DNA of 64,000 nt from an uncultured Pseudodesulfovibrio sp. (GCA_963662475.2 CAXXUE010000002.1:50486-114485), one strand, 5' to 3'; counted from the stretch's first letter, positions 30,663 through 43,011 are shown. Made by a program: numbers and translations. The notes: generated from the sequence alone by a model not told the origin.

Positions 30663-30720
30663 AGCGCAATAAGTGCAAGTAATTGCGCTAAAAATTGCAC
30701 GCATTGTGCAAACAGTGCAA
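30663..30720. promoter_or_regulatory. Candidate upstream activator sequences
   Basis: AGCGCAAT/ATTGCGCT inverted pair (30663-30689) and TTGCAC-N5-GTGCAA (30695-30711), 50-110 bp upstream of the sigma54 promoter. Confidence 0.55.
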
Positions 30721-30797: not shown

Positions 30798-32327
30798 TCA
30801 ATTCTTGGGCATGACAGCTGCCTTGACAGGAGGCTCCACATCCAAAACCGGACAGAGGAACAAGGAGACGGTGGTGCCCTCGCCGGGCACACTAGCCAAC
30901 TCCACATGGCCGCCGCACTCCTCAATGATCTTCTTGATCATCGGCAGACCGAGGCCGCTGCCGCCTTCCTTGGTCGAATAGAACGGATTGAAGGCCTGGT
31001 CCTGCTCGTGCTCGCTCATGCCGATACCCTGGTCCATGACCTTGATCAGAACTTCGCCCTTTTCCAGGCCGATCTCAAGGGTGATGACACCGCCGTTGCG
31101 CATGGCCTCAATGCCATTCTTGATGAGGTTGACCAGACATTGCTTGATGGCGTCCTGGTCACCCTGAACCGACGGCAGGACTTCGTCCGCCACGACCTCC
31201 ACGCTATACCCCTGCTGACCGTAGCCAATATCCATCAGTTCGCCCACGTCCTTGCAGACGCTCAGGATGTCCACGGAACCTCCCGGCGCGTGTGAGGAGC
31301 GTGCAAAATTGAGCATATTGGTGAGCATCCGGTCCAGCCGCTTGGTTTCATTGACGATGATCTGCACCTTTTCCCGCTCCTTCTCCCCCAGTCCGGGGGA
31401 CCGCAACAGGGAATTGGCAAACCCGCCCACCGCAAAAAGCGGGTTGCGGATCTCGTGGGCCAGGTAGGTGGACATCTCGCCGATAACAGCAAACTGATCC
31501 CGCTGCTGCTTATACTTCTCCCGATGGGTCCGCTCCGTGATATCCCGATGCATGACCATGATGTGCGTCATGTTTCCCCGAATGTCGTAGATGGGATAGG
31601 CATAGAGCCGATAATACTGGAGCAGGCCGCTTCCGTTGACCCGTGTAACCAGGGATTCCTCTTTTCCGCCGCTCTGCAGGGTCTTGTGAAACGGGCAGAT
31701 CGGGTCGAGATGGCTGCAAAAGCAGGAGCCGTCCCGCAGACGGGCCGCGTTCCAGCACGGCTTGCCCAGCAGACTCTTCCGGGAAACACCCGCCCGCTGC
31801 CAGACAATACGGTTCAAATCCACGACATTGCCGCTCTTGTCGAGCAGAAAGATATCCTCCCGGATCTCGTCGATGATTGATTGTATCAGGGTACGCTGAT
31901 GATCCATCTGGTTCATGTAGTTGCTCTTGACCAACGCCATGTCGTGCAGACCGCAGAAAAACACGACCTGCCGATGGTCCATCAGGGAGATGGAATTCGG
32001 CAACGCCCGGCGCAACTGCGCCAGCACAGCCATATCCCCGGTCATTTCGACCACCAGATTGATTTCAGGATGACTCGCGACCATCTCGTCCCAGGTCGTG
32101 TATACCGGACAAGACACCTCGCTCAAGCAGGCCTCCACCTCGACCCCGTCAGGGCAGCTCACAGCACACAGCTTCATCTCCGGCAGAAATTCACGAAACG
32201 CCTCGTTGTAGACGATGTCCACCAGGATACCCAATGCCGATCCGGAACCGACCACCCCCACGTTGAAGGGCCCCATGGTGCCATTCCAATAACATATCCC
32301 CAGATTCTCGTACGCAAAATCACCCAT
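30798..32327 (-). CDS. Cytoplasmic histidine kinase (Rossmann-like N-terminus, PAS)
   Basis: AHEIRNPL, NLIKNG, DQGIG, GSGLGL; no evident TM. Confidence 0.9.
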   Translation of the reverse strand: MGDFAYENLGICYWNGTMGPFNVGVVGSGSALGILVDIVYNEAFREFLPEMKLCAVSCPDGVEVEACLSEVSCPVYTTWDEMVASHPEINLVVEMTGDMAVLAQLRRALPNSISLMDHRQVVFFCGLHDMALVKSNYMNQMDHQRTLIQSIIDEIREDIFLLDKSGNVVDLNRIVWQRAGVSRKSLLGKPCWNAARLRDGSCFCSHLDPICPFHKTLQSGGKEESLVTRVNGSGLLQYYRLYAYPIYDIRGNMTHIMVMHRDITERTHREKYKQQRDQFAVIGEMSTYLAHEIRNPLFAVGGFANSLLRSPGLGEKEREKVQIIVNETKRLDRMLTNMLNFARSSHAPGGSVDILSVCKDVGELMDIGYGQQGYSVEVVADEVLPSVQGDQDAIKQCLVNLIKNGIEAMRNGGVITLEIGLEKGEVLIKVMDQGIGMSEHEQDQAFNPFYSTKEGGSGLGLPMIKKIIEECGGHVELASVPGEGTTVSLFLCPVLDVEPPVKAAVMPKN

Positions 32328-32371: not shown

Positions 32372-32797
32372 TCATTCATCGGAAAATCCGAGGAGATGGG
32401 ACACCTGAATTTCATGGTTTCGCAACAACTTACATTCCATGGCCCGGCTGACACACTCCAATATTTCCGACACGGATGCCGGCTTCAGGAGATAATCGAA
32501 CGCCCCCTTTTGAAGGAGTTTCGTGGCATCGGGCACCGAGACATGCCCCGTAAGACAGATTGTTTCGACGTCAAACCCGCGCTGCCGAATCTCCCGAAAG
32601 GTCTCCTCGCCGCTCATGCCGGGCATCTTCAGGTCGAGCAGGACCACATCGAAATCCCCGCTCTCCAGCTTCTTGATGGCGGTCGGTCCGTCCGGGGCCT
32701 CATCAACAACGTGGCCGTGTTCCGCCAACAGGCGGAGCATACTCTTCCGGAACCGGTCTTCGTCATCGACCAAAAGGATTCGTGCCGCAGTCTTCAT
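32372..32797 (-). CDS. Single-domain response regulator
   Basis: LLVDDE, LLDLKMP, YLLKP. Confidence 0.92.
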   Translation of the reverse strand: MKTAARILLVDDEDRFRKSMLRLLAEHGHVVDEAPDGPTAIKKLESGDFDVVLLDLKMPGMSGEETFREIRQRGFDVETICLTGHVSVPDATKLLQKGAFDYLLKPASVSEILECVSRAMECKLLRNHEIQVSHLLGFSDE

Positions 32798-32806
32798 GGC
32801 AACCTC

Positions 32807-33724
32807 TCATGCTTTTAATGGAATGCGAACGATAAAGGCAGCACCCTTCCCCAACTCGGAACGGACCGCGATCTCCCCCCCCAGTTGCGTGACGATACGC
32901 AGGCTCACGGAAAGCCCGAGGCCGGTCCCCTCGCCGGGTGCCTTGGTCGTGAAAAAGGGATTGAATATTCTGTCGATGTCGGCCTGAGCCACGCCCGGGC
33001 CGGTATCGCGGACCTCCACACACGCCATGGCCCCCTCGCAATACGTGGTCACATAGATTATCCCGTCGTTATTCACGGCCTGGACTGCGTTTATCAGCAG
33101 ATTGAGAAACACCTGACGCAACAACGGCGGATCGGTCTTGACCGGGCGCAAGTTGTTGTCGAAAGCCTTTATTATCTGAATCTTCGGGCCAGCTCCGCGT
33201 TCGAGCAGCCCCAACATGTCTTCGACCAACCGGTTGATGTCCGCAACCTGGGAGATGGGCACCCGATTACGTGCGAAATCGAGCAGCTTGTGCGTGATAT
33301 CGGAGCATCGTTCCACCTGCTTCAGGATGACATCCAGGCTCCCCCGGATTTCCTCCAGGGATTCCGGAGTTACCTCCTCCTTGAGATCCACCCGCATCAA
33401 CTCGGCCTCTTGCATGATGATATTCAACGGATTGTTGATCTCATGGGCGATGCCCGTGGAAATTTCCCCCAGGGCCAATATCTTTTGCGACTGAATGAGC
33501 TGATTGCCCAGCTCGGACTGTTCCTGACAGACGTGGCCCAACCATTGGTCGGTCGTTCGCATCAACAGCCATATCCCGACGGCCGCCAATGTGGCGACAA
33601 CGGGGACAGCAATCTCTATTCCCGCCGAAGGCCGTCTCCAGGCAATAGCCGCGAGTGCCAGGAATACCGAGGGCGCAACATATTGCCCCAGCCTGACTAT
33701 CCGTCTGGCCTTGGGCAACGTCAT
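32807..33724 (-). CDS. Small histidine kinase with two TM helices and no periplasmic domain
   Basis: [19 protein letters not shown]. Confidence 0.92.
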   Translation of the reverse strand: MTLPKARRIVRLGQYVAPSVFLALAAIAWRRPSAGIEIAVPVVATLAAVGIWLLMRTTDQWLGHVCQEQSELGNQLIQSQKILALGEISTGIAHEINNPLNIIMQEAELMRVDLKEEVTPESLEEIRGSLDVILKQVERCSDITHKLLDFARNRVPISQVADINRLVEDMLGLLERGAGPKIQIIKAFDNNLRPVKTDPPLLRQVFLNLLINAVQAVNNDGIIYVTTYCEGAMACVEVRDTGPGVAQADIDRIFNPFFTTKAPGEGTGLGLSVSLRIVTQLGGEIAVRSELGKGAAFIVRIPLKA

Positions 33725-34119
33725 GCAGTCCCTCCGCTTCCCCGCTTCAACTGGGAGTGTTCACAAGCGGCCCGTATCCGCTCCAGCAAATCGTCTATGG
33801 AAAACGGCTTGAGCATGTAATCATACGCTCCGTGACTCATGCCCTCGATGCCGGACTGCACGGAGCCGTGGCCGGTCAGCATGATGACCTCGGTGTCCCG
33901 GAACCGCTTCCGCATTTCCTTGAGTGTCTCGATACCATTCAGGCCGGGCATGCGGACGTCGAGGATAGCCACGTCAACCCGGTTTTCCGCCAGGAATTCA
34001 AGGGCCTCCTTTCCACCGGGAACCACGCTCACGTCGACATTCCGCTTTTCCAGTCGCCTTTTGATGAGTTTCAGGAAATCCAATTCGTCATCCACGACAA
34101 GGATCTTTATTCTGGCCAT
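33721..34119 (-). CDS. Single-domain response regulator
   Basis: VVDDE, ILDVRMP, YMLKP. Confidence 0.92.
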   Translation of the reverse strand: MARIKILVVDDELDFLKLIKRRLEKRNVDVSVVPGGKEALEFLAENRVDVAILDVRMPGLNGIETLKEMRKRFRDTEVIMLTGHGSVQSGIEGMSHGAYDYMLKPFSIDDLLERIRAACEHSQLKRGSGGTA

Positions 34120-35792
34120 GACTCCTCCAAGCGGCCGGGAAAGTGGGAATGAACAATGGGCAGGGAGATGGTAAACGTGGTCCCGACACCACGTTCACTC
34201 TGCACGGAAATCCTGCCGCCAAGCTTCTTGAGTGTGCTGTAAACGATGGAAAGGCCCAGCCCGGTGCCCTTGCCCGTGGCCTTGGTAGTGAAAAAGGGAT
34301 CAAACACCCGGGACAGGTTTTCCTCGGCAATACCTTCGCCGCTGTCCCTGATGTCCATGACCACATTATCACCCTCCACCTGAGTTTCCAAATGCAGGGC
34401 CCCCTTCTCGCCGATGGCGTCGATGGCATTTTCCAGCAGGTTGAGAATGACCTGCTGCACCTGGTTGGAATCGGTGGTGATCAGGGGCAGGTTCGGATCA
34501 AACTGACATTCCACCTCGATATTGCGGTGGCGAATTTCATTTTCCAGGAAAGAGACCGTCTGCCGCGCCAGCATGTTCAGGTCCACATCTTCCTGCATGG
34601 GCTCCATGCGGCGGGCGAACCCGAGCATGCGGTGGGTAACCGTACGCGCCCTTTCCACATGCCGGTCGATGTCGTTGGTGGCTTCCTGCAGGTCGTCCAC
34701 AGCCTGGGATTCCCCCAGTTCACCGTCGTTTATGATATCCCGTATCCACCCCGCGCTCTCCCGGATAATGGAGAGCGGATTGTTGATTTCGTGTGCCACC
34801 CCGGCCGCCAGCTTGCCCAGCGATGCCATCTTGCTGGACTGCATGACCGCTGCGTCCATGGACGCACGCTCCTTGTCCGCCTTCTTGAGCCGGGTGACCA
34901 CCGAGGCCACGGAGAGATAGGCCCCGATAAAGATCATCAGACCACAGGCCGCGAACAAAATATATATCAGGGACTGGGTCCTGAGCAGGGGCGAAAGCTC
35001 CTCCTCGGGATTCTCTATTACCACCAGCCGCCATTCCGTATGGGCCAGCGGTGTGATCCCGGCCACAAGGCTCGTCCCGTCCTCGTCCCATTCGAGGATA
35101 TCCACTCCGGCAACTCCCCTGCTCGCGGGCAAAGTCACCCTGGTCAGTGCCTTGCCACCAAACCGCGAGGGCGTCTGAAGCACGCCGTCACGATTGACCA
35201 GGTAAGCGTCCCCGAACTGGCCGGAGCGGACGTTACGGACCAGCGAAGTGAAGATATCAGAATCAATGGTCGCCCTCAGTATCCAGGTCCGGCCCGCTTC
35301 CCGCCGTTTCACCGCAATGATGAAGTGGGGAAAGTTGCGGAACCCCATGAACACGTCGCTGATGTACAACCCCTTGAGCATGACCTGATGAAACCAGGGT
35401 TCATCCCGATAGTTGACATCCTTGAGGTCAAATGGCCCACTGTACGCCTCGTGACGTCCATTCTGGCCAATGACCCCTATGTCAATAAAAGAGGGACTCG
35501 TCTCGTGCACGGTGTCGAACACTGCTTCCAGATATTTCTGGTCCGTTATCCGGGAAAAGGAATGCATCCCGGCCAGCATCTGGAGCTGCACGACCCGTTC
35601 GTTGAGAAACATGTCGATGGCGTCGCGCTTGTTGCTGACCACCAGGCGTAGGTTGCTGGTCAGCTTTTCCTCATACGACTGCCTGAACTCGGAATGGATA
35701 ACGTAACCCAGCGCAAAGAGAGGAAGAATAGACAACACCAGGGTCATCAGAATAAGATTCCAGCGCAACCTGACGTAGGACGTATCCGTCAT
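34107..35792 (-). CDS. Sensor histidine kinase with Cache-like periplasmic domain
   Basis: 2 [21 protein letters not shown]. Confidence 0.92.
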
Positions 35793-38413
35793 TGCTCACA
35801 CCTCCGCGTGGTCGACGCTTCGGACAGTTCGGAAAGTATCACATTGATATCCTTGCTAAATTTTTCTCTATATCTCTCTTCCGATGCCCCGTCGGCCATG
35901 ACCATGTCTATCTGCCGGGTATGCACCAGCAGGTAGCCCATTATGGCAAGGGCCTGTTCCGCGACCTCGCAGGCCACGCCCTCCATCCGGGCGTACAGGG
36001 AATCCCCCCTGACCTCGACGATGAATCCGTGTTCCTCAAGCAGGCCCGCCACAAGCCTGATCCGGGTCTGGCGGCGACCTATGTCCGCCCCGCCGCCCTT
36101 GTACTGGAACAACGCGTAGTTCTCGCCCGGATCGTCGCCCGCAAAGCCCTCGACCGTGCAGAAATGAAAGCCGAAACGGGATTGGAGATTACAGTAATGC
36201 CTTCCCACGATGAAATAGTTGCGCCTGCCCATATCGTTGGCCACGCCCGGAGTCAGAGCCGGATTCTGCGCGGCTTCGGAAACAATGGACATGAAACCGC
36301 TCATGTTGACCGGGGGCGGCCCTTCCCACTCCACTGCAGTCATGCCGTGCCACAGGGACAGCATGGCATTGGACAGGATATCGTCCAGGGAAATATGCCC
36401 GCCCTCACCGGAATCAAGGGTGCCGCCGCCGATGTCCACCAGCCAATAATGCATGGGCAACTCGCCCCTGAGCTTGCGCGCGTTGGCCGTGGGATGGTCT
36501 CCGCCGGAAAACATTTCGAACACGGCCTTTTCATGACAATACCGCGTGATGTCGTGCAGAGACGTGCACCCCTCAGGCGTGAATTCGGCGCTGTCGGGGT
36601 CGGTCAGAGAAAGAGGCACCACATAGGGAAGCACCCGACGCAGGGCCAGAACCACGTCGTTTTCCCTGGGCAAGGATTTTACCGTGCCTGCGGCATCAAT
36701 CTGTGCCTGCCGGATACCGCGATAGATATTGCCGGTATCGGCGTTGACCGTGACCACGCCGACATCGGACAACCGTTGCACCGCACCGGGCGCGCCGATC
36801 AGGGCAGGAACGGAAAATTCACGCGCCACGTTGGCCAAATGGCTGGCCGAGCTGCCAAATTCGGCCACCAGCGCAGCGGCCTTGGGCAGCAGAGCTGACA
36901 ATTGCGGCCTGGCATTGCGCGTAAGCAGGATTCCCCCATCAGGGAATTGCAGCATGTCCTCATCCGTTTCCACCAGAAAGACGTGGCCCGAAGCCACACC
37001 CGGACTGGATGGGACAGCGGACGTAAGGACAACAAAAGACGCGTCTTCGTCATATTCCGGGTCGAATTCAATCGCATCCGCCTGTCCGGAAACCGCCAGG
37101 GGGCGGCATTGAAGAATGTAGACAAGGCCATCCCGATCCACGGCCCACTCCACATCTTGCGGCTGGCCGAAATGGGACTCCATACGCATCGCCATCCCGG
37201 CGAGAAGGGTGACCATCTCGTCGGATATGGAGGGAGCGGAACGTTGCGGCCCTTCCAATTGATGCCGGGTCACAGTGCCATCGTGGGCCATGCTTTGAAG
37301 CCATTGCTTGTCCGCAATTCTCGCCTCGCGAATCTCCAGGGTATCCCGGTCAACCCGCCAGGTGTCAATCCGGGCGGAGCCGTCCACCACGGCACAGGGT
37401 AGGCCGAAAGCACCATTGACTATCAATGCCGTGTCACTGGTGGAAACGGGATTGCACGTATAGACAACGCCTCCGGCCACGGCATCAATCATTTCCATAC
37501 AGCCCACGCACATGACCACTCCGTCTTCCCGGAGTCCGCGATTGAATCGGTAGATCATGGCCGTGGCCGAATACATACTCCCTACCACGCTCCGATACGC
37601 CTCGGTTACGTCTGTCGGCCTGACGCCGAGCAGGGAGAGAAATTGTCCGGCAAAACTGGTGTCCTCGGCGTCCTCGCCCAGGGCGCTGCTGCGCACGGCC
37701 AGTCTGAGGTTCTCCTTTCCGGCCATAAGCGTCTTGCACTGCGCCTCGATGGCCTCCTCAAGTTCCGGCGGAATGGCCGCCATGTCGATGGCCTGGCGAA
37801 TGTTCGCCTCCAGCGTGCGGAGTTCATCCAGCTCGTTGCTGTCCGTTATCTGGATCAGACGGTTGATCTCGTCCTCAAGACCAGTGGAGTCCATGAAAAG
37901 TCGAAATGCCGAAGCCGTTATGGAAAATCCCAGGGGAATCCGAATATCCAGCTTTTCGCCGATCTCTCCGAGCAGGGCCATCTTGGACCCGGTTTCGAGT
38001 GCGGACTCCGCCCTGACGGACTCCAGTCCCAGGACCAACGGGCCGGACGACTCGGCCGGGCGAAGGACAACCGCCGCCTCCATATCCATGACGATGCGGT
38101 TGAAAATATCCTTGAGCGGTTCGTATTTCCCCGGACACATGCGGCACAACCGCTCAATCATCTGGCGGACCGACGCCGCCACCTTGAGGCTCTGCGCCCT
38201 GACGTGCGCCATGCCGAAAACGCGATTTGACTTCGCGTCCTCGGTCATCTCGCCCATGCGTTCAAGGGCATCGTTGTTGGCGGCGAGCAAGAGACGAAAG
38301 TTTTCCGACTTGGCAAGGAACCGATCGGCAGCAGCCGTTCCGGCCGGTGCCCGTCGGATGAGATTGAATATATTCTTGATAAGGGTCTGCATGGCATCAC
38401 CGCCGCAACTCAA
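35789..38413 (-). CDS. PEP-synthase/PPDK-like protein (ATP-grasp plus phospho-His swivel domain, atypical C-terminus)
   Basis: GSKMA, AVRSSA.GED, FAGQF, QDVEWA, ILQCRP, SSASHLANVARE. Confidence 0.88.
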   Translation of the reverse strand: MSCGGDAMQTLIKNIFNLIRRAPAGTAAADRFLAKSENFRLLLAANNDALERMGEMTEDAKSNRVFGMAHVRAQSLKVAASVRQMIERLCRMCPGKYEPLKDIFNRIVMDMEAAVVLRPAESSGPLVLGLESVRAESALETGSKMALLGEIGEKLDIRIPLGFSITASAFRLFMDSTGLEDEINRLIQITDSNELDELRTLEANIRQAIDMAAIPPELEEAIEAQCKTLMAGKENLRLAVRSSALGEDAEDTSFAGQFLSLLGVRPTDVTEAYRSVVGSMYSATAMIYRFNRGLREDGVVMCVGCMEMIDAVAGGVVYTCNPVSTSDTALIVNGAFGLPCAVVDGSARIDTWRVDRDTLEIREARIADKQWLQSMAHDGTVTRHQLEGPQRSAPSISDEMVTLLAGMAMRMESHFGQPQDVEWAVDRDGLVYILQCRPLAVSGQADAIEFDPEYDEDASFVVLTSAVPSSPGVASGHVFLVETDEDMLQFPDGGILLTRNARPQLSALLPKAAALVAEFGSSASHLANVAREFSVPALIGAPGAVQRLSDVGVVTVNADTGNIYRGIRQAQIDAAGTVKSLPRENDVVLALRRVLPYVVPLSLTDPDSAEFTPEGCTSLHDITRYCHEKAVFEMFSGGDHPTANARKLRGELPMHYWLVDIGGGTLDSGEGGHISLDDILSNAMLSLWHGMTAVEWEGPPPVNMSGFMSIVSEAAQNPALTPGVANDMGRRNYFIVGRHYCNLQSRFGFHFCTVEGFAGDDPGENYALFQYKGGGADIGRRQTRIRLVAGLLEEHGFIVEVRGDSLYARMEGVACEVAEQALAIMGYLLVHTRQIDMVMADGASEERYREKFSKDINVILSELSEASTTRRCEQ

Positions 38414-38793
38414 GCGGGAGCAAGGCGACGCGATTTGACCGCATCCAATACCTTGAAATACAGTTCATCGGTTCCCACTGGCTTCAGCAGGTAGTCGAAC
38501 GCCCCACACTCCATCCCTTCGATGAGGACCTTCGAGTTCGCATGACCGGTCAAAATGATGACCGGCAAGGTCGAGTCCAGTGCCTTGATTCGACGCAGGG
38601 TTTCTATGCCGCTCATTCCGGGCATCATGACGTCGAGAATCACCACGTCAAAGGCTTTGGCCTGCACTTTCTCAAGGGCCTCCAGGCCGCTGGTCGCGAT
38701 GTCGATTTCCGTATTCCGGCGAATGAACCGGCGCGAATAGGCGGTGAGGAAGTCATTCTCATCATCCACCAACAGCAAACGTATCTTTTTCAT
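38410..38793 (-). CDS. Single-domain response regulator
   Basis: LVDDE, ILDVMMP, YLLKP; start at ATG 38793. Confidence 0.9.
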   Translation of the reverse strand: MKKIRLLLVDDENDFLTAYSRRFIRRNTEIDIATSGLEALEKVQAKAFDVVILDVMMPGMSGIETLRRIKALDSTLPVIILTGHANSKVLIEGMECGAFDYLLKPVGTDELYFKVLDAVKSRRLAPA

Positions 38794-38918
38794 CTCTGCT
38801 CTCCTGCGGCTTTCTCCGCGCCCGGACCGGGGGCTAGGGGCGTGCCCCCGGCCAGGGGTTGGAGGGGTGAGGGAAGGGTATGTCCTCATTATCTATGCGC
38901 AAAAAAACGGTGTGATCC

Positions 38919-39464
38919 TCACATCAACTCTTGCAGTTCGGTAATCAGCGGCGCTGCGGTCCAGAAAAACAACAGCAGCAGAAAGCCCGTCATGACAACG
39001 ATCAATGCCGCCTTGATCTTGGTTGTACCGGCCGCCTTGACCAGCCCGATACCCACGAGCAGGGCGCGGACCGGCTCTATGGCAATGGCCAATCCCGGAA
39101 TCCAGGAAACCACCATGACCGCGCCGCTGGCGTACGCATAAATATTGAAGACCTTGCCGTAGGATACCTTGTCCATGCTGGTCATGCCGAGAAGGATAAA
39201 GGTGATGACCGCACCAAAAGCTGGCATCGCCACCGCGTTGACCATCATGATCACGCCCATGGTGAGCGAGTTCTCGAAAAAGTAGGCCATGCTGACCGAG
39301 CAATAGAACAAGGCCGAAATCATCAGGAAAAACAGTGCGCGCCTCGAACTGGTCTCCGCAGCGACCGATCCGAAGAATTTGATAGGCGACCGCATAACGG
39401 AAAAAATCGTATCGAAATATTCCCTGGCATTCATCCGGGAACCGTTTTCGCAAGTAGCTTCCAT
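38919..39464 (-). CDS. YIP1-family membrane protein
   Basis: SPIKFF motif, about 5 hydrophobic segments, YAYASG. Confidence 0.7.
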   Translation of the reverse strand: MEATCENGSRMNAREYFDTIFSVMRSPIKFFGSVAAETSSRRALFFLMISALFYCSVSMAYFFENSLTMGVIMMVNAVAMPAFGAVITFILLGMTSMDKVSYGKVFNIYAYASGAVMVVSWIPGLAIAIEPVRALLVGIGLVKAAGTTKIKAALIVVMTGFLLLLFFWTAAPLITELQELM

Positions 39465-39705: not shown

Positions 39706-41556
39706 TCAGAAGGCTGGCAAACTGCCGAACCCGATGCCGCACCAGTAAACTGCCGTCAGAAGGACGATCACGATATTGGCTATGAACCACATGGGAAGTC
39801 CGACCCGGATATAATCCTTGGGTTCCAGGTAGCCGGATGCATAGACGATGGCATTCGGCGGGGTGCCGATGATCAGGCAGTAGGCAAAGGACGATGCCAC
39901 TGCTGTCGCCATGGCCATGAACGGCAGGAACGTGGTGCCGGGATGGACGATACTCGCCAGGTTGAGGGTGATGGGACCAACTGCGGCAGCGGCGGGGCCG
40001 TCAGCCATCAGGTTGGTCAGAACCGCAGTCAGGCCGTTGGACGTAAGCATCAGCGGGATGCCGTGGTCCATGCCGAGCGGGGCCAGCATATCGATGACGG
40101 ACTGGGCCAGCCAGTAGGCAGCGCCGGTCTTGTCCAGGGTGCGACCGAAGATGATGGCACCCGCGTACAACCAGACAACACCCCAGTCGACCTTTTCCTG
40201 GTAGTCACGCCAGTTGACAACACCCGCGAACAGGTAGGCCACAGCACCGGCAACCGCGATGACACCAATGCCCAGGCGGATGGGGTAGATACCCAGGTTG
40301 TAGAATTCCTTTTCCGTGAACCAACCGAAGACCATGACGGCAAAGATGACCATTGCCCAGATCTGATTCCGGTTCCACTTGCCCATCTTGCTGATTTCAC
40401 CTTCGAGGTGGCGCATGGCCGGTGCCAGGGAGGTGATTTTCGGCTTGAAGACCATGTTGGTTACGATCCAGGTGATGGGGATCATGACGACCACGAACGG
40501 CATACAATAGGCGATCCACTGGGCGTACCCAATGTCCATGCCGAACATGTCGCTCAGATAGGTCATCATGATGACGTTGCGTGCGCCGCCCGAAGGTGCG
40601 CCGGGACCACCGATGTTACACGCCATGGCAATGGCAATCATCAGCATCTTGGCCAATTCCTTGTCCTCGGGGACTTCATCGGTCAGGCTGTTCTGATAGA
40701 GCAGCATGCCGATGGGCAGGAACATGGCGGCCAACGCATGGTCGGAAATGAACGCGGCCAGCGGGCTGATGACGATGAAGAAGATAAGCGTGATCCAACG
40801 GACGTTGGGCACCGCCAGCTTTTTGAACATCATCAGGCACATGCGCTTGTCCACGCCCGTCTTGACGAAGGCTGCAGCAAACATGAGTGAACCCATGATA
40901 AACCAGCAGGCGTCAGACCAGTAAAGACCGGCCACTTCGCTTCGGGTCACGACCCCGGTGAAGACCAGAATCAGGCCGATGGAGAACGCCACGCCCGGAA
41001 GCGGGATGCACTCGGTCATGAAGCAGAAGACAACGAACACGACCAGAGCGATGGCGACCTTGATCTTCCAGGCACCCTTTTCGGCGCTCTTCTTTTCACC
41101 CTTGGATAGCTCGTCGTACTTGAGGCCTTTCATTCTCTTGTTAAACGCGCCCTTCATGAACTTGAGGTAGGCCTCGTCCGCGACGGAGGTCTTGACGTAG
41201 TCCATGGCACGCTTGAAGTTTGTTGCATCAGCGGGGATCTTGTACTTCTTCGCCCACTTCAGGTTGCGCTTCATCAAACGGTCCTTGGAAAGCGCGCCCA
41301 TACGCATATTCTGTTCCATCATGCTGGCGGTGAGAAGCTGCCATTGTTCGCAATCCGCACTTTTTTTCTGGAAGAGCTGCTGACACAGGTAATTGGTTAC
41401 GACCTTGGGGCCGACCGAGTACTGCATGCCCACGTCTTTCATCCCGTTGGGGGTGGGTAACATGAGAATTACAGCAAAAAGTACCACCGGAAATATGAAA
41501 AGCTTCCAATTGACGTACTTGTCGTAACCGGTCGCTTTATTCTTTTGTTGAGCCAT
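39706..41556 (-). CDS. SLC13/DASS-family anion transporter
   Basis: ISDHA, GAPSGGARN, LIIGTPPNAIVY; many TM helices. Confidence 0.9.
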   Translation of the reverse strand: MAQQKNKATGYDKYVNWKLFIFPVVLFAVILMLPTPNGMKDVGMQYSVGPKVVTNYLCQQLFQKKSADCEQWQLLTASMMEQNMRMGALSKDRLMKRNLKWAKKYKIPADATNFKRAMDYVKTSVADEAYLKFMKGAFNKRMKGLKYDELSKGEKKSAEKGAWKIKVAIALVVFVVFCFMTECIPLPGVAFSIGLILVFTGVVTRSEVAGLYWSDACWFIMGSLMFAAAFVKTGVDKRMCLMMFKKLAVPNVRWITLIFFIVISPLAAFISDHALAAMFLPIGMLLYQNSLTDEVPEDKELAKMLMIAIAMACNIGGPGAPSGGARNVIMMTYLSDMFGMDIGYAQWIAYCMPFVVVMIPITWIVTNMVFKPKITSLAPAMRHLEGEISKMGKWNRNQIWAMVIFAVMVFGWFTEKEFYNLGIYPIRLGIGVIAVAGAVAYLFAGVVNWRDYQEKVDWGVVWLYAGAIIFGRTLDKTGAAYWLAQSVIDMLAPLGMDHGIPLMLTSNGLTAVLTNLMADGPAAAAVGPITLNLASIVHPGTTFLPFMAMATAVASSFAYCLIIGTPPNAIVYASGYLEPKDYIRVGLPMWFIANIVIVLLTAVYWCGIGFGSLPAF

Positions 41557-41588: not shown

Positions 41589-42488
41589 TCAGCTGGATGA
41601 AATGATCTTGGCGATCTCGTAAAAGAGCTCCTGCTCTCGAACGATACCGACATCACTACCATTGGCCTGTACCAACATACGTCTGGCAGGGAGGGTCACC
41701 ATGGTATTGGCCGCATCCATGAGATTGGCATTGGCATCAATCACGGGGAGAGTCTCGGACATGAGGCCACGCACGGGCTTGTCCATGATTTCCTTGACCC
41801 GTGAGGTAAAAAGCCCCTGCCAGAACATGGCCGAATATTGCAGACTGTCGGCCATAGAGGGTTTTGATGCCGAGAGGTAGTCAGGCCTCACCGCATCAAT
41901 GAGATCCAGCGGACTGAGCAATCCGACAACGCTTCCGTCAATGTCCGTCACCAGTACGGACCGGTGCCCGGTGTCCATGAGACGGTCGGTGGCCAGCAGA
42001 TGACGCATGGCCTTTTCCAGTGCCCGAATGGCGTCCCGGACCGTGCTGTCAACCGGAATTTGCGTATACCGCTCCAGCGGGATCATGATGTCGCCTGCCA
42101 GCTTTTCGATGTAGGCCACTTTGGTGGCGTAATCGTAGGCATCCTTGATCTTGGCACCCAGCAGGTCTACGTCACAGGGCTTTGCCAGATAGTCGAACGC
42201 ACCTGTTTCATAGGCTTTTTTTGCGCCAGGAACATCGCCATGCCCGGTCAGCATGATGATGGGAATATCCGGCAATTTAGCCTTGATGAGTTTCAAAGTG
42301 TCATGCCCGTCCAGACCACCCATTTTCACGTCAAGGATGACCACATCCGGCGACTGGTCCAATTTGTCCAATGCCTCCTCGCCACTTTCCGCTAGAATTG
42401 TTTCAAATCCTTTGCGAGCCAGTATCTTTGCTGTCGTGGTGCGAAAGCGCTCCTCATCATCAACCATGAGGACCTTGATTTTAACCAT
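41589..42488 (-). CDS. Response regulator with C-terminal CBS pair
   Basis: REC (MVDDE, ILDVKM, YLAKP) followed by CBS-like repeats; ATG 42488 with AAGGAGG. Confidence 0.88.
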   Translation of the reverse strand: MVKIKVLMVDDEERFRTTTAKILARKGFETILAESGEEALDKLDQSPDVVILDVKMGGLDGHDTLKLIKAKLPDIPIIMLTGHGDVPGAKKAYETGAFDYLAKPCDVDLLGAKIKDAYDYATKVAYIEKLAGDIMIPLERYTQIPVDSTVRDAIRALEKAMRHLLATDRLMDTGHRSVLVTDIDGSVVGLLSPLDLIDAVRPDYLSASKPSMADSLQYSAMFWQGLFTSRVKEIMDKPVRGLMSETLPVIDANANLMDAANTMVTLPARRMLVQANGSDVGIVREQELFYEIAKIISSS

Positions 42489-42498
42489 TACAACCTCC

Positions 42499-42957
42499 TT
42501 ATTTTCTAACCAATTCACTCTGTCCACCCGAGGATTCGGCCATTTGGGCAGAGTGTATTTTCCGTTTCTGAAGCTTGACCTTTTCAAAAGCCTCCTCAGC
42601 CTTGCTCAGGAAATCCTTCATGCTCACCGGCTTGATGAGATAATCCAGCGCACCCAGCTTGAGCCCCTCCACCGCAGTCTCCATGGTGGCGTGACCTGTC
42701 AGGATGATGACCTCGGAAAGCGGGTAATCCTTTTTAATGCGCTGCAACGTCTCCATGCCGTCCATGCCAGGCATCTTGATATCGAGAAAGATGACATCCA
42801 CGTCCCGGGTTTGCAGAACATTCAACGCTTCCTGACCCGAATTGGCCGTAAGCGCTTCGATGCCGATTTTCTCGAAAAGCTTCCTGGTAGTGCTAAGCAA
42901 CCGCTCTTCGTCATCCACAAGTAAAATTCTCATCTTTTTCATACCGTCACCATGCAT
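42499..42957 (-). CDS. Single-domain response regulator (start 42957 or 42942)
   Basis: LVDDE, FLDIKMP, YLIKP. Confidence 0.88.
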   Translation of the reverse strand: MHGDGMKKMRILLVDDEERLLSTTRKLFEKIGIEALTANSGQEALNVLQTRDVDVIFLDIKMPGMDGMETLQRIKKDYPLSEVIILTGHATMETAVEGLKLGALDYLIKPVSMKDFLSKAEEAFEKVKLQKRKIHSAQMAESSGGQSELVRK

Positions 42958-42994: not shown

Positions 42995-43011
42995 AGCAAC
43001 CAACATGCCAA
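42995..43011 (-). promoter_or_regulatory. sigma54 promoter at the head of the RR-RR/CBS-SLC13 operon
   Basis: Minus strand TTGGCATGTTGGTTGCT, near-consensus -24/-12. Confidence 0.85.

Follow-up and report, generated by a model that had tools for sequence, protein, structure and literature searches.

A barrel-less, PEP-synthase-like dikinase encoded with two-component genes and an anion permease in Pseudodesulfovibrio

The window, that is, the whole stretch of 64,000 nucleotides that was analysed, carries on its minus strand the gene of a dikinase whose relatives are nearly always encoded with one subfamily of stand-alone receivers, with histidine kinases and with an anion permease. A sequence-only reading of the window had taken the product for a dikinase-type phosphotransferase with an acceptor other than pyruvate, and this stands: the catalytic positions are invariant, the C-terminal domain is modelled as alpha+beta, and the genome encodes a separate canonical PpsA. 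With a probability of roughly 0.55, we propose that the enzyme is a receiver-controlled dikinase which, through its non-pyruvate acceptor, switches anion transport post-translationally; here we infer the activity, the direction of control from receiver to dikinase, what kind of acceptor is used and how transport is affected. The window dikinase probably helps to control the uptake of sulfur oxyanions.

Gene model and domains of the dikinase

The gene and the parts of its product are the following:
35789..38392, minus strand: coding sequence of the dikinase (barrel-less, PpsA-like), 867 aa, ATG start, identical to record P0006; the homologues share the same start Met
38066..38335, minus strand: N-terminal three-helix bundle, residues 20-109, family-specific (AF2 helices 20-54, 61-85, 92-109)
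37073..37993, minus strand: ATP-grasp nucleotide-binding domain (PPDK_N, PF01326, Pfam E 1e-80), residues 134-440, or 141-447 in the numbering of the 874-aa ORF
36731..36946, minus strand: swivelling phospho-histidine domain (PEP-utilizers mobile domain, PF00391, Pfam E 5e-15), residues 483-554
36839-36841, minus strand: codon of the catalytic His518 (codon checked)
35792..36670, minus strand: C-terminal alpha+beta domain, residues 575-867 (~290 aa), family-specific, presumed acceptor site (AF2)

In the homologues, and in the recorded gene call P0006 (867 aa), the start is the ATG at 38392 (MQTLIKNIFNL). The earlier reading had the ORF running over 35789-38413: it is indeed a minus-strand ORF, but it does not begin at 38413, where a TTG was chosen as an artefact of taking the longest ORF. 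The 4-bp overlap with the upstream receiver (38410-38413) rested on that TTG and is lost with it; 17 nt separate the receiver stop (38410) from the dikinase ATG, and the same junction measures 15-18 nt in the relatives L001, L002, L004 and L005. The receiver ORF had been over-extended as well, its 127-aa orthologues fitting a start at 38793. The overlap with the downstream kinase (35789-35792) is real: ATGA is present and is preceded by GGAGGTG. Translational coupling, which had been proposed for both sides, thus holds downstream but not across the 17-nt gap upstream. The strings quoted from the protein (SSASHLANVARE, SLHDITRYCHEKA, SRFGFHFC and YKGGGAD) were all found in the dikinase translation.

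The ATP-grasp motifs and the swivel His had been described as intact, and we agree, as the nucleotide and Mg ligand positions (K137, R234, E240, D241, D413, E415, Q428 and R430 in the ATP-grasp domain) and H518 are invariant in 117 homologues. His518, in the motif SSASH, falls on the catalytic His in alignments with the PEP synthases 9dae and 2ols (the GGMTSH motif of PpsA); K137, R234, D413, E415, Q428, R430 and H518 are also kept in a paralogue of 31% identity. In Foldseek searches, the ATP-grasp part matches 2ols, 5hv1 and 5hv6 (superposing on the last at TM 0.89), and the N-terminal part has RPH, PPDK and HpeI as structural neighbours. The first ~125 aa have no Pfam match even at E=10.

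The C-terminal domain was said to lack the PEP-synthase barrel, and every search points the same way. The last ~300 aa gave no Pfam match even at E=10, PF02896 included; the domain matched none of the PDB sequences, and its model matched no PDB fold at E<=0.001 (Foldseek, TM<=0.21), with no RPH entry among the 50 Foldseek matches listed for the domain model alone. AF2 predicts an alpha+beta domain, at a pLDDT of 77.5 when modelled alone and of about 80-95 over most of its length in the full-length model. A divergent PEP barrel was rejected on the lack of a Pfam match, the AF2 model and Foldseek. It is thus well supported, on the predicted structure, that the C-terminus is not a PEP/pyruvate TIM barrel and that its fold has no known relative. 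Its invariant residues are H613, D614, R617, H620, H743, G766, G767, R777, D797, R826 and D829, and the signature HDxxRxxH ... H ... GG ... R ... D ... RxxD is retained in the 31%-identical paralogue.

A helix with an LHD-like motif, together with faint Foldseek matches of the C-domain to DesK (probability <=0.11, TM ~0.13), suggested a hidden histidine-kinase module. We rejected this candidate: hhalign gave a probability of at most 1.6% against kinase core, REC and ATP-grasp, and no DHp/CA homology above that value in either the C- or the N-domain (88-row kinase-core alignment).

Like PpsA and PPDK (2ols, 8a8e, 9dae, 1kbl), the window dikinase has an ATP-grasp domain followed by a swivelling phospho-His domain, with about 30% identity over ~460 residues and with the nucleotide/Mg ligands and the catalytic His conserved. 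It differs from them by the ~290-aa alpha+beta domain standing in place of the TIM barrel (PF02896), by the added three-helix bundle, and by the setting of its gene, an operon for signalling and transport and not for metabolism. Such proteins pass in databases and in some papers for ordinary PEP synthases (pyruvate, water dikinases) serving gluconeogenesis. Homologues are indeed named "phosphoenolpyruvate synthase" or "pyruvate, water dikinase", and the best NCBIfam matches are PpsA models; these matches stay below both equivalog cut-offs, however (TIGR01418, 327.4 vs 598; NF005057, 306.1 vs 739.75), and stop at model position ~470 of ~790. The genome encodes elsewhere a full canonical PpsA (1206-aa frame), as well as an Enzyme I. 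With neither PF02896 nor a barrel in the model, the domain content already refutes a PEP synthase, and we give this label next to no credence.

Other enzymes likewise join ATP-grasp and swivel-His domains to a different acceptor module: RPH (5hv1, 5fbs), PigC/RedH, phenylphosphate synthase and HpeI. The analogy with rifampin phosphotransferase that had been drawn is sound in principle and does not extend to the domain order. RPH carries its His domain at the C-terminus and its acceptor domain between the others; the window dikinase has the His domain in mid-chain (residues 483-554), with some 300 aa still to follow. Scores fall far short of the cut-offs for the RPH model NF041857 (212 vs 999) and for the PigC model (197 vs 1300).

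Family, operon and the nitrate cluster

The family counts at least 1455 cluster representatives from at least 596 species. Its C-domain was found only at the C-terminal end of proteins of ~860-890 aa (at least 1455 representatives), in one fixed architecture of four parts (helical bundle, ATP-grasp, swivel His, signature C-domain), all of which the window dikinase has. None of the 1455 representatives is fused to a REC or HK domain, and the long ORFs that were checked carry no extra Pfam domain. The family is almost confined to dsrA-bearing Desulfobacterota: dsrA is present in 113 of the 119 genomes that bear the family, and the family in 6 of 144 genomes devoid of dsrA (raw counts, uncorrected for phylogeny). 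About 70% of the sampled dsrA-bearing Desulfobacterota have it, often in several copies, with up to 7 paralogues per genome accompanied by REC/HK sets; the window genome has three copies, all adjoining REC/HK genes.

The neighbourhood is conserved too. In a set of 80 loci, a receiver lies at most 3 kb upstream of the dikinase in 56 of 72, a kinase directly downstream in 20 of 65, and kinases beside the dikinase in 53 of 80; TauE is found in 60 of the 80 and its 230-aa partner in 59. The receivers adjoining the dikinase and those just upstream of TauE form one REC subfamily, which includes the window receiver at 38410-38793, and their DD/D/T/K pocket is intact (24/24 and 32-33/33). The window locus has everything expected of the family, a receiver of the partner subfamily, histidine kinases and a permease, the last being DASS and not TauE. 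In the tree, the DASS-linked clade (Desulfovibrionaceae) is nested inside TauE-linked ones. This means that the transporter was swapped while the REC-dikinase-HK set was kept. Around the dikinase, the genes are laid out as follows, in the direction of reading:
42996..43010, minus strand: sigma-54-like -24/-12 element TGGCATGTTGGTTGC, 1 mismatch, candidate operon promoter
41589..42587, minus strand: REC-CBS protein, first gene of the run (Pfam)
39706..41556, minus strand: DASS/SLC13 anion symporter, replacing TauE in the window clade (TIGR00785, 229 bits, above cut-off; tree)
38919..39464, minus strand: Yip1-family membrane protein, between transporter and receiver (Pfam Yip1, E 2.5e-6, just under cut-off)
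38410..38793, minus strand: partner stand-alone receiver, 127 aa, 17 nt upstream of the dikinase (Pfam Response_reg, E 3e-30)
34107..35792, minus strand: dCache sensor histidine kinase, its ATG overlapping the dikinase stop (Pfam)
33721..34119, minus strand: stand-alone receiver 2 (Pfam)
32807..33724, minus strand: soluble HisKA/HATPase histidine kinase (Pfam)
32372..32797, minus strand: stand-alone receiver 3 (Pfam)
30798..32327, minus strand: PAS histidine kinase, last gene of the run (Pfam)
30695-30711: terminator-like hairpin, past the PAS kinase gene

The Yip1-family gene keeps its place in L001-L005. The sigma-54-like element is possibly the operon promoter, on weak evidence from the sequence, the window holding 13 such matches where 6 are expected. 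Scans for sigma-70 promoters and terminators within the operon yielded nothing above chance. Pfam detected no DNA-binding domain in the nine island proteins scanned (9/9), and neither Pfam nor NCBIfam detected other metabolic genes in the dikinase operon.

The 31%-identical paralogue lies on contig 28 of the same genome and bears the family C-domain (E 4e-63). The gene order around it, TauE-hyp-PtxB-HK-REC-dikinase-DSP phosphatase, is that of the Desulfovibrio "nitrate cluster" DVU0251-0245, and the phosphatase is of the Cys-type dual-specificity (DSP) kind. Neither a DSP phosphatase nor a PtxB-like gene occurs in the window or near the 80 closest loci; hence both are confined to the "nitrate-cluster" subfamily. 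DVU0246 and Dde_0604 resemble the window dikinase in that their listed domains are just PPDK_N, mobile domain and ATP-grasp, the barrel being absent, and their genes follow those of a kinase and a lone receiver and lie beside that of a TauE permease; it is this domain list and gene order (PMC4001038), not sequence, that tie them to the family. No D. vulgaris or G20 entry was among the best 120 matches of the second homologue search. The window dikinase differs from them by its linkage to DASS, Yip1 and REC-CBS and by having neither PtxB-like binding protein nor phosphatase beside it. Transposon insertion in TauE (DVU0251), in the receiver (DVU0247) or in the dikinase (DVU0246) makes the cells nitrate-resistant, and in D. 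vulgaris the phosphatase (DVU0245) mutant has the opposite nitrate fitness (Korte et al. 2014, PMC4001038). The D. vulgaris cluster kinase DVU0248 is a pseudogene, yet mutation of the receiver or of the dikinase still gives the phenotype; in G20, a mutant of the kinase behaves as the other cluster mutants do, and cluster mutants are mildly sick on thiosulfate (PMC4001038). These genetics concern the TauE-linked paralogue type, 31% identical, and not the DASS-linked gene of the window.

Partner receiver, acceptor and anion transport

In the scheme that we favour, the ATP-grasp domain would move the beta-phosphate of ATP to His518, yielding AMP and Pi, and the swivel domain would ferry it from there to the family-specific C-domain, where the invariant His/Asp/Arg cluster would hand it to an acceptor other than pyruvate. 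The dikinase would be the effector arm of the neighbouring two-component genes, which themselves have no DNA-binding output: the operon kinases would phosphorylate the partner receiver (38410-38793), which would then switch the dikinase. The product would most likely be a protein or ligand at the transporter that carries an O-phosphate, and may turn on the co-encoded anion permease post-translationally, this being DASS in the window operon and TauE in most relatives. The Cys-type DSP phosphatase that is paired with the paralogue points to an O-phosphoester product. Against the scheme, the acceptor could be a small molecule, and the window clade has no phosphatase gene. Gene order alone suggests the direction from receiver to dikinase, and the need for a receiver in D. 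vulgaris, where the kinase is a pseudogene, fits the reverse direction equally well. As for transport, sulfate or thiosulfate has been proposed as the substrate of the DASS carrier (PMC11887813), and a "PEP synthase" adjoining TauE rises by 3.4 log2 units, together with TauE and its partner, in thiosulfate disproportionation (proteomics, PMC13490349).

The reverse direction would make the dikinase a phosphodonor: loaded from ATP, His518~P would pass its phosphate to the Asp of the partner receiver, docked on the C-domain or the N-terminal bundle, and the enzyme would be an ATP-grasp-type stand-in for a histidine kinase. Chemically, the step from phospho-His to Asp is an ordinary one, and there is an analogy in Enzyme I and Enzyme I-Ntr, swivel-type phospho-His proteins heading a chain that controls transporters and sensor kinases, Enzyme I passing phosphate from PEP, via its barrel domain, to HPr/NPr. 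The likeness is in the possible mode of working: unlike Enzyme I, the window dikinase would draw on ATP, has no barrel and has CheY-like receivers as partners, and it scores 16.5 on the Enzyme I model TIGR01417, far from the cut-off of 341.7. That a single receiver subfamily with an intact phospho-acceptor pocket travels with the dikinase, that the island has five receivers for the three kinases of the dikinase operon and no DNA-binding output, and that the phenotype survives the loss of DVU0248 all favour this possibility. The kinases beside so many of the dikinases (53/80), the matching phenotype of the G20 kinase mutant, the lack of any REC/HK fusion and of HK-like homology, and the DSP phosphatase of contig 28, of a kind normally active on O-phosphoesters, speak against it; moreover, the invariant His/Asp/Arg set is typical of a catalytic site and not of a docking surface. 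We consider it rather unlikely.

Of similarly low probability, in our estimate, is a dikinase whose C-domain binds and phosphorylates a low-molecular-weight acceptor, as rifampin phosphotransferase, phenylphosphate synthase and glucan-water dikinase do; candidates for the acceptor would then be the imported anion or one of its derivatives, or else a second messenger, with the two-component genes merely tuning the activity or expression of the enzyme. To our knowledge, the characterised relatives, Enzyme I excepted, phosphorylate small or polymeric O-nucleophiles. RPH, PPDK and HpeI as structural neighbours, the conserved His, Asp and Arg of the C-domain, and a permease that is nearly always at hand to supply a substrate would all suit such an enzyme. 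In plants, glucan-water dikinase and the dual-specificity phosphatases SEX4/LSF2 work in opposition on a single O-phospho substrate, an arrangement that the dikinase and DSP phosphatase of the contig 28 cluster, and the opposite mutants of D. vulgaris, may recall; unlike the plant enzyme, the window dikinase has no carbohydrate-binding module, its acceptor part is unrelated in sequence, and its operon has no phosphatase. Against a small substrate, the gene context yields no candidate and no other metabolic gene; the permease changes from TauE to DASS under a constant C-domain signature, which fits a regulatory target better; and the paralogues, as many as 7 in one genome and each accompanied by a REC/HK set of its own, look like signalling modules.

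The receiver-controlled dikinase that we prefer bears on how sulfate reducers control the uptake of their electron acceptor. The operon with its DASS carrier, CBS proteins and two-component systems has been described for the regulation of sulfate uptake with no mention of the dikinase (PMC11887813), which is likewise absent from Marietou 2018 (PMC5840216) and from the Sci Adv 2025 paper, supplements included. The family is mislabelled "PEP synthase", so that the proteomics study read its induction as gluconeogenesis. Through the nitrate cluster it is genetically tied to nitrate sensitivity, and so is relevant to the control of oil-field souring. Should the dikinase instead head an ATP-driven, AMP-forming phosphorelay, from His518~P to the Asp of a CheY-like receiver or to a transporter-associated protein at the C-domain, which we think improbable, the charge of the His would follow ATP, AMP and Pi/PPi, the products of sulfate activation; sulfate-reduction flux and energy state would be coupled to sulfate or thiosulfate uptake, and receivers would have a third route of phosphorylation besides histidine kinases and small phosphodonors. 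The acceptor, once found, would define a new output of two-component systems and a new acceptor domain among the swivelling dikinases.

Domain content of the dikinase

Pfam matches the dikinase (P0006, 867 aa) to PPDK_N (E 1e-80) and to the PEP-utilizers mobile domain (E 5e-15), and even at E=10 finds nothing in its first ~125 or its last ~300 residues. The match to the NCBIfam PpsA equivalogs stops at model position ~470, with scores about half of the cut-offs, and those against the rifampin phosphotransferase (RPH), PigC, RedH and Enzyme I models lie far below theirs. Across 117 aligned homologues, whose identity is 40-76%, K137, R234, E240, D241, D413, E415, Q428, R430 and the swivel His518 are invariant, and His518 is aligned to the catalytic His of the PEP synthases 9dae and 2ols. 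Among the invariant positions are those which we take to be PPDK Lys22, Arg92, Asp321, Glu323, Gln335 and Arg337. In the full-length AlphaFold model (pLDDT 84), a three-helix bundle (residues 20-109) comes first, then the ATP-grasp and swivel domains, and lastly an alpha+beta domain. Foldseek matches of this model are PpsA 2ols, RPH 5hv1/5hv6, HpeI 9goj and PPDK; their scores stem from ATP-grasp and swivel, and where an alignment extends further, its identity is low and its rmsd high. Judged by its sequence, the dikinase carries a complete ATP-grasp and swivel-His machine.

The C-terminal domain of the model is made of antiparallel strands and helices. Modelled alone (pLDDT 77.5), it has no Foldseek match in the PDB at E<=0.001 (TM <=0.21), and its profile finds no match among PDB sequences. 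The sequence-only reading had held that this C-terminus is not the canonical PEP-utilising barrel; since the model is alpha+beta and matches no PDB fold, that claim withstands the check. This is a new conserved domain with a His/Asp/Arg signature. The genome has, besides, a 1206-aa frame of canonical PpsA type, in which PF01326 and PF02896 are both found, and an Enzyme I. Its domain content refutes the label of the dikinase as an ordinary PEP synthase.

Gene boundaries and operon layout

The open reading frame 35789-38413 (-) proposed earlier does exist, but its TTG is not the likely start: the recorded gene and all close homologues start at the ATG at 38392 (MQTLIKNIFNL...). Upstream, the receiver frame 38410-38889 (-) is over-extended by 32 Pro/Arg/Gly-rich residues; as its orthologues have 127 aa, the receiver probably starts at the ATG at 38793 (MKKIRLLLVDD). 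Given the dikinase start of the homologues and the gaps of 15-18 nt between the two genes in four of the closest loci (L001, L002, L004 and L005), we concluded that the receiver and the dikinase are 17 nt apart and that the 4-bp overlap read there does not exist. This spacer holds GGTGA, a Shine-Dalgarno-like motif. The overlap read at the other end is genuine: the dikinase shares ATGA with the Cache kinase gene at 35789-35792, preceded by GGAGGTG. Three further features bear on the layout.

42996-43010, (-) strand: sigma-54-like -24/-12 element with 1 mismatch, upstream of the first gene, which encodes a receiver-CBS (REC-CBS) protein
38919-39464, (-) strand: Yip1-family membrane protein, 181 aa (Pfam E 2.5e-6, just under the cut-off)
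30695-30711, (-) strand: terminator-like hairpin and T-run, after the last kinase gene

In the run that starts with the REC-CBS gene and ends with the last kinase, neighbouring genes are spaced by -13 to +125 nt. Together with the hairpin and the sigma-54-like element, this spacing fits a possible single operon of ~12 kb and eleven ORFs, ten of which have family or conservation support, the other being a putative 49-aa ORF. The Yip1 protein has the DASS carrier on one side and the partner receiver on the other, a position kept in the five closest loci (L001-L005); its slot is that of the 230-aa partner of the TauE anion permease in other clades.

The family, its neighbours and its copies

Searched in 1.84 billion proteins (E<=1e-3), the C-domain profile retrieves at least 1455 cluster representatives. 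In all of the 150 matches listed the domain lies at the C-terminal end, and the proteins reach ~890 aa, a few being longer; among the long family ORFs checked, none carries a further Pfam domain, and fusions to REC or HK were not observed. Relatives are encoded in at least 596 species genomes, almost all of Desulfobacterota. When this phylum was sampled evenly, 119 of 301 genomes contained the family, at most 7 matches being found in one genome; by genus, the figure is 71 of 201. Its presence tracks dsrA: this gene is found in 113 of the 119 positive genomes, and the family in 6 of 144 dsrA-negative ones (odds ratio 59, phylogeny ignored). The sequence-only reading had correctly spotted a real feature, and the dikinase belongs to a variant of the swivelling dikinases which is widespread, carries the wrong label and is biochemically unstudied.

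In the 80 loci compared, the usual order is [HK]-REC-REC-TauE permease-230-aa membrane partner-(REC)-dikinase-(HK...), with TauE in 60 loci and its partner in 59. Within 3 kb upstream of the dikinase, 56/72 loci have a receiver; the gene directly upstream is the 230-aa partner in 39/72 and a receiver in 23/72, and the one directly downstream a kinase in 20/65. The receivers adjacent to the dikinase and those just upstream of TauE are reciprocal best matches across loci and form one partner subfamily, whose DD/D/T/K phospho-acceptor pocket is complete. In Dsr organisms, the dikinase nearly always comes with a receiver of this subfamily, with kinases and with an anion permease. In L036 and L045 two dikinase paralogues stand in tandem, separated by a receiver; in L026, L059 and L073 the two are on opposite strands. 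Such pairs within a locus suggest that the module was duplicated locally more than once.

In a tree of 83 enzymes, the window gene and L001-L005 (Pseudodesulfovibrio, Maridesulfovibrio and relatives) share a clade that branches from among the TauE-linked enzymes. There REC-CBS, the DASS carrier and Yip1 replace TauE and its partner, while REC-dikinase-HK is kept: the transporter was swapped and the signalling core retained, which argues that the enzyme serves the transporter and not any one substrate.

Two further copies lie in the same genome. On contig 20 (L085 2600-10730) the order is HK-REC-REC-REC-TauE-partner-dikinase, and kinase, TauE, partner and dikinase are each split over at least two frames, so that either this copy is decaying or the MAG contains assembly errors here. 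Another HK-REC-REC-REC-TauE set comes after this cluster. On contig 28 (L086 9938-19450 (-)) we find TauE, a hypothetical protein, a PtxB-like periplasmic binding protein, a Cache/PAS kinase (sCache/HAMP/PAS), a receiver of 119 aa, a dikinase of 819 aa and a dual-specificity (DSP-type) phosphatase of 361 aa with a C-terminal Cys-rich segment; the ORFs of 203 aa and 159 aa between TauE and the PtxB-like gene have no Pfam match. This dikinase shares 31% identity with the window protein and has retained 56 of 68 invariant positions, including, in the C-domain, H613, D614, R617, H620, H743, G766, G767, R777, D797, R826 and D829.

A proposed role in anion uptake

In gene order, which is complete, and in domain list, contig 28 agrees with DVU0251-DVU0245 / Dde_0597-0605, the "nitrate cluster" of Desulfovibrio (Korte et al. 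2014, PMC4001038); the tie of DVU0246 itself to the family rests on synteny and domain content. Transposon mutants of this cluster in TauE, the receiver and the dikinase resist 100-150 mM nitrate but not nitrite (PMC4001038). This shared resistance places permease, receiver and dikinase in one pathway promoting anion entry. The D. vulgaris phosphatase mutant, opposite to the others, has strongly negative fitness, which the G20 homologue does not show; G20 cluster mutants are mildly sick on thiosulfate, and Korte et al. suggest a leaky thiosulfate transporter (PMC4001038).

In Dissulfuribacter thermophilus, the "PEP synthase" DITHS69_1988 adjoins a "transmembrane protein co-occurring with TauE" (1989) and TauE (1990), and is up 3.4 log2 units with them in thiosulfate disproportionation, which was read as gluconeogenesis (PMC13490349). 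As its gene order matches that of the family, DITHS69_1988 is probably a barrel-less member mis-assigned as PEP synthase. The same protein is cited once under another locus tag, DITHS69_1161 (PMC13490349).

We propose that ATP would charge His518, releasing AMP and Pi, and that the swivel domain would bring the phosphate to the C-domain, where it may pass to an acceptor other than pyruvate. The receiver, phosphorylated by the kinases of the operon, would gate this transfer, and the product would switch the permease on after translation. Such post-translational control fits the nine island proteins scanned by Pfam, none of which carries a DNA-binding domain. The phosphatase of the contig-28 cluster favours an O-phosphoester as product; that the acceptor is a small molecule seems rather improbable.

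The main rival, raised by the sequence-only reading, is that the dikinase donates its phosphate to the partner receiver. The data on this receiver are compatible with it, as is the kinase of the D. vulgaris cluster, a pseudogene; but most loci do have kinases, and these, the catalytic-looking C-domain and the phosphatase of the paralogous cluster are less consistent with a phosphodonor, so that we regard it as unlikely. A receiver gating the dikinase is the more likely reading.

For sulfate reducers, a cluster of DASS, CBS and two-component genes has been presented as a regulon of sulfate uptake (PMC11887813); neither the text of that paper nor its examined supplements mention the dikinase. 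The dikinase gene of the window belongs to the DASS-linked sub-clade and lies in an operon which probably controls the uptake of sulfate or thiosulfate.
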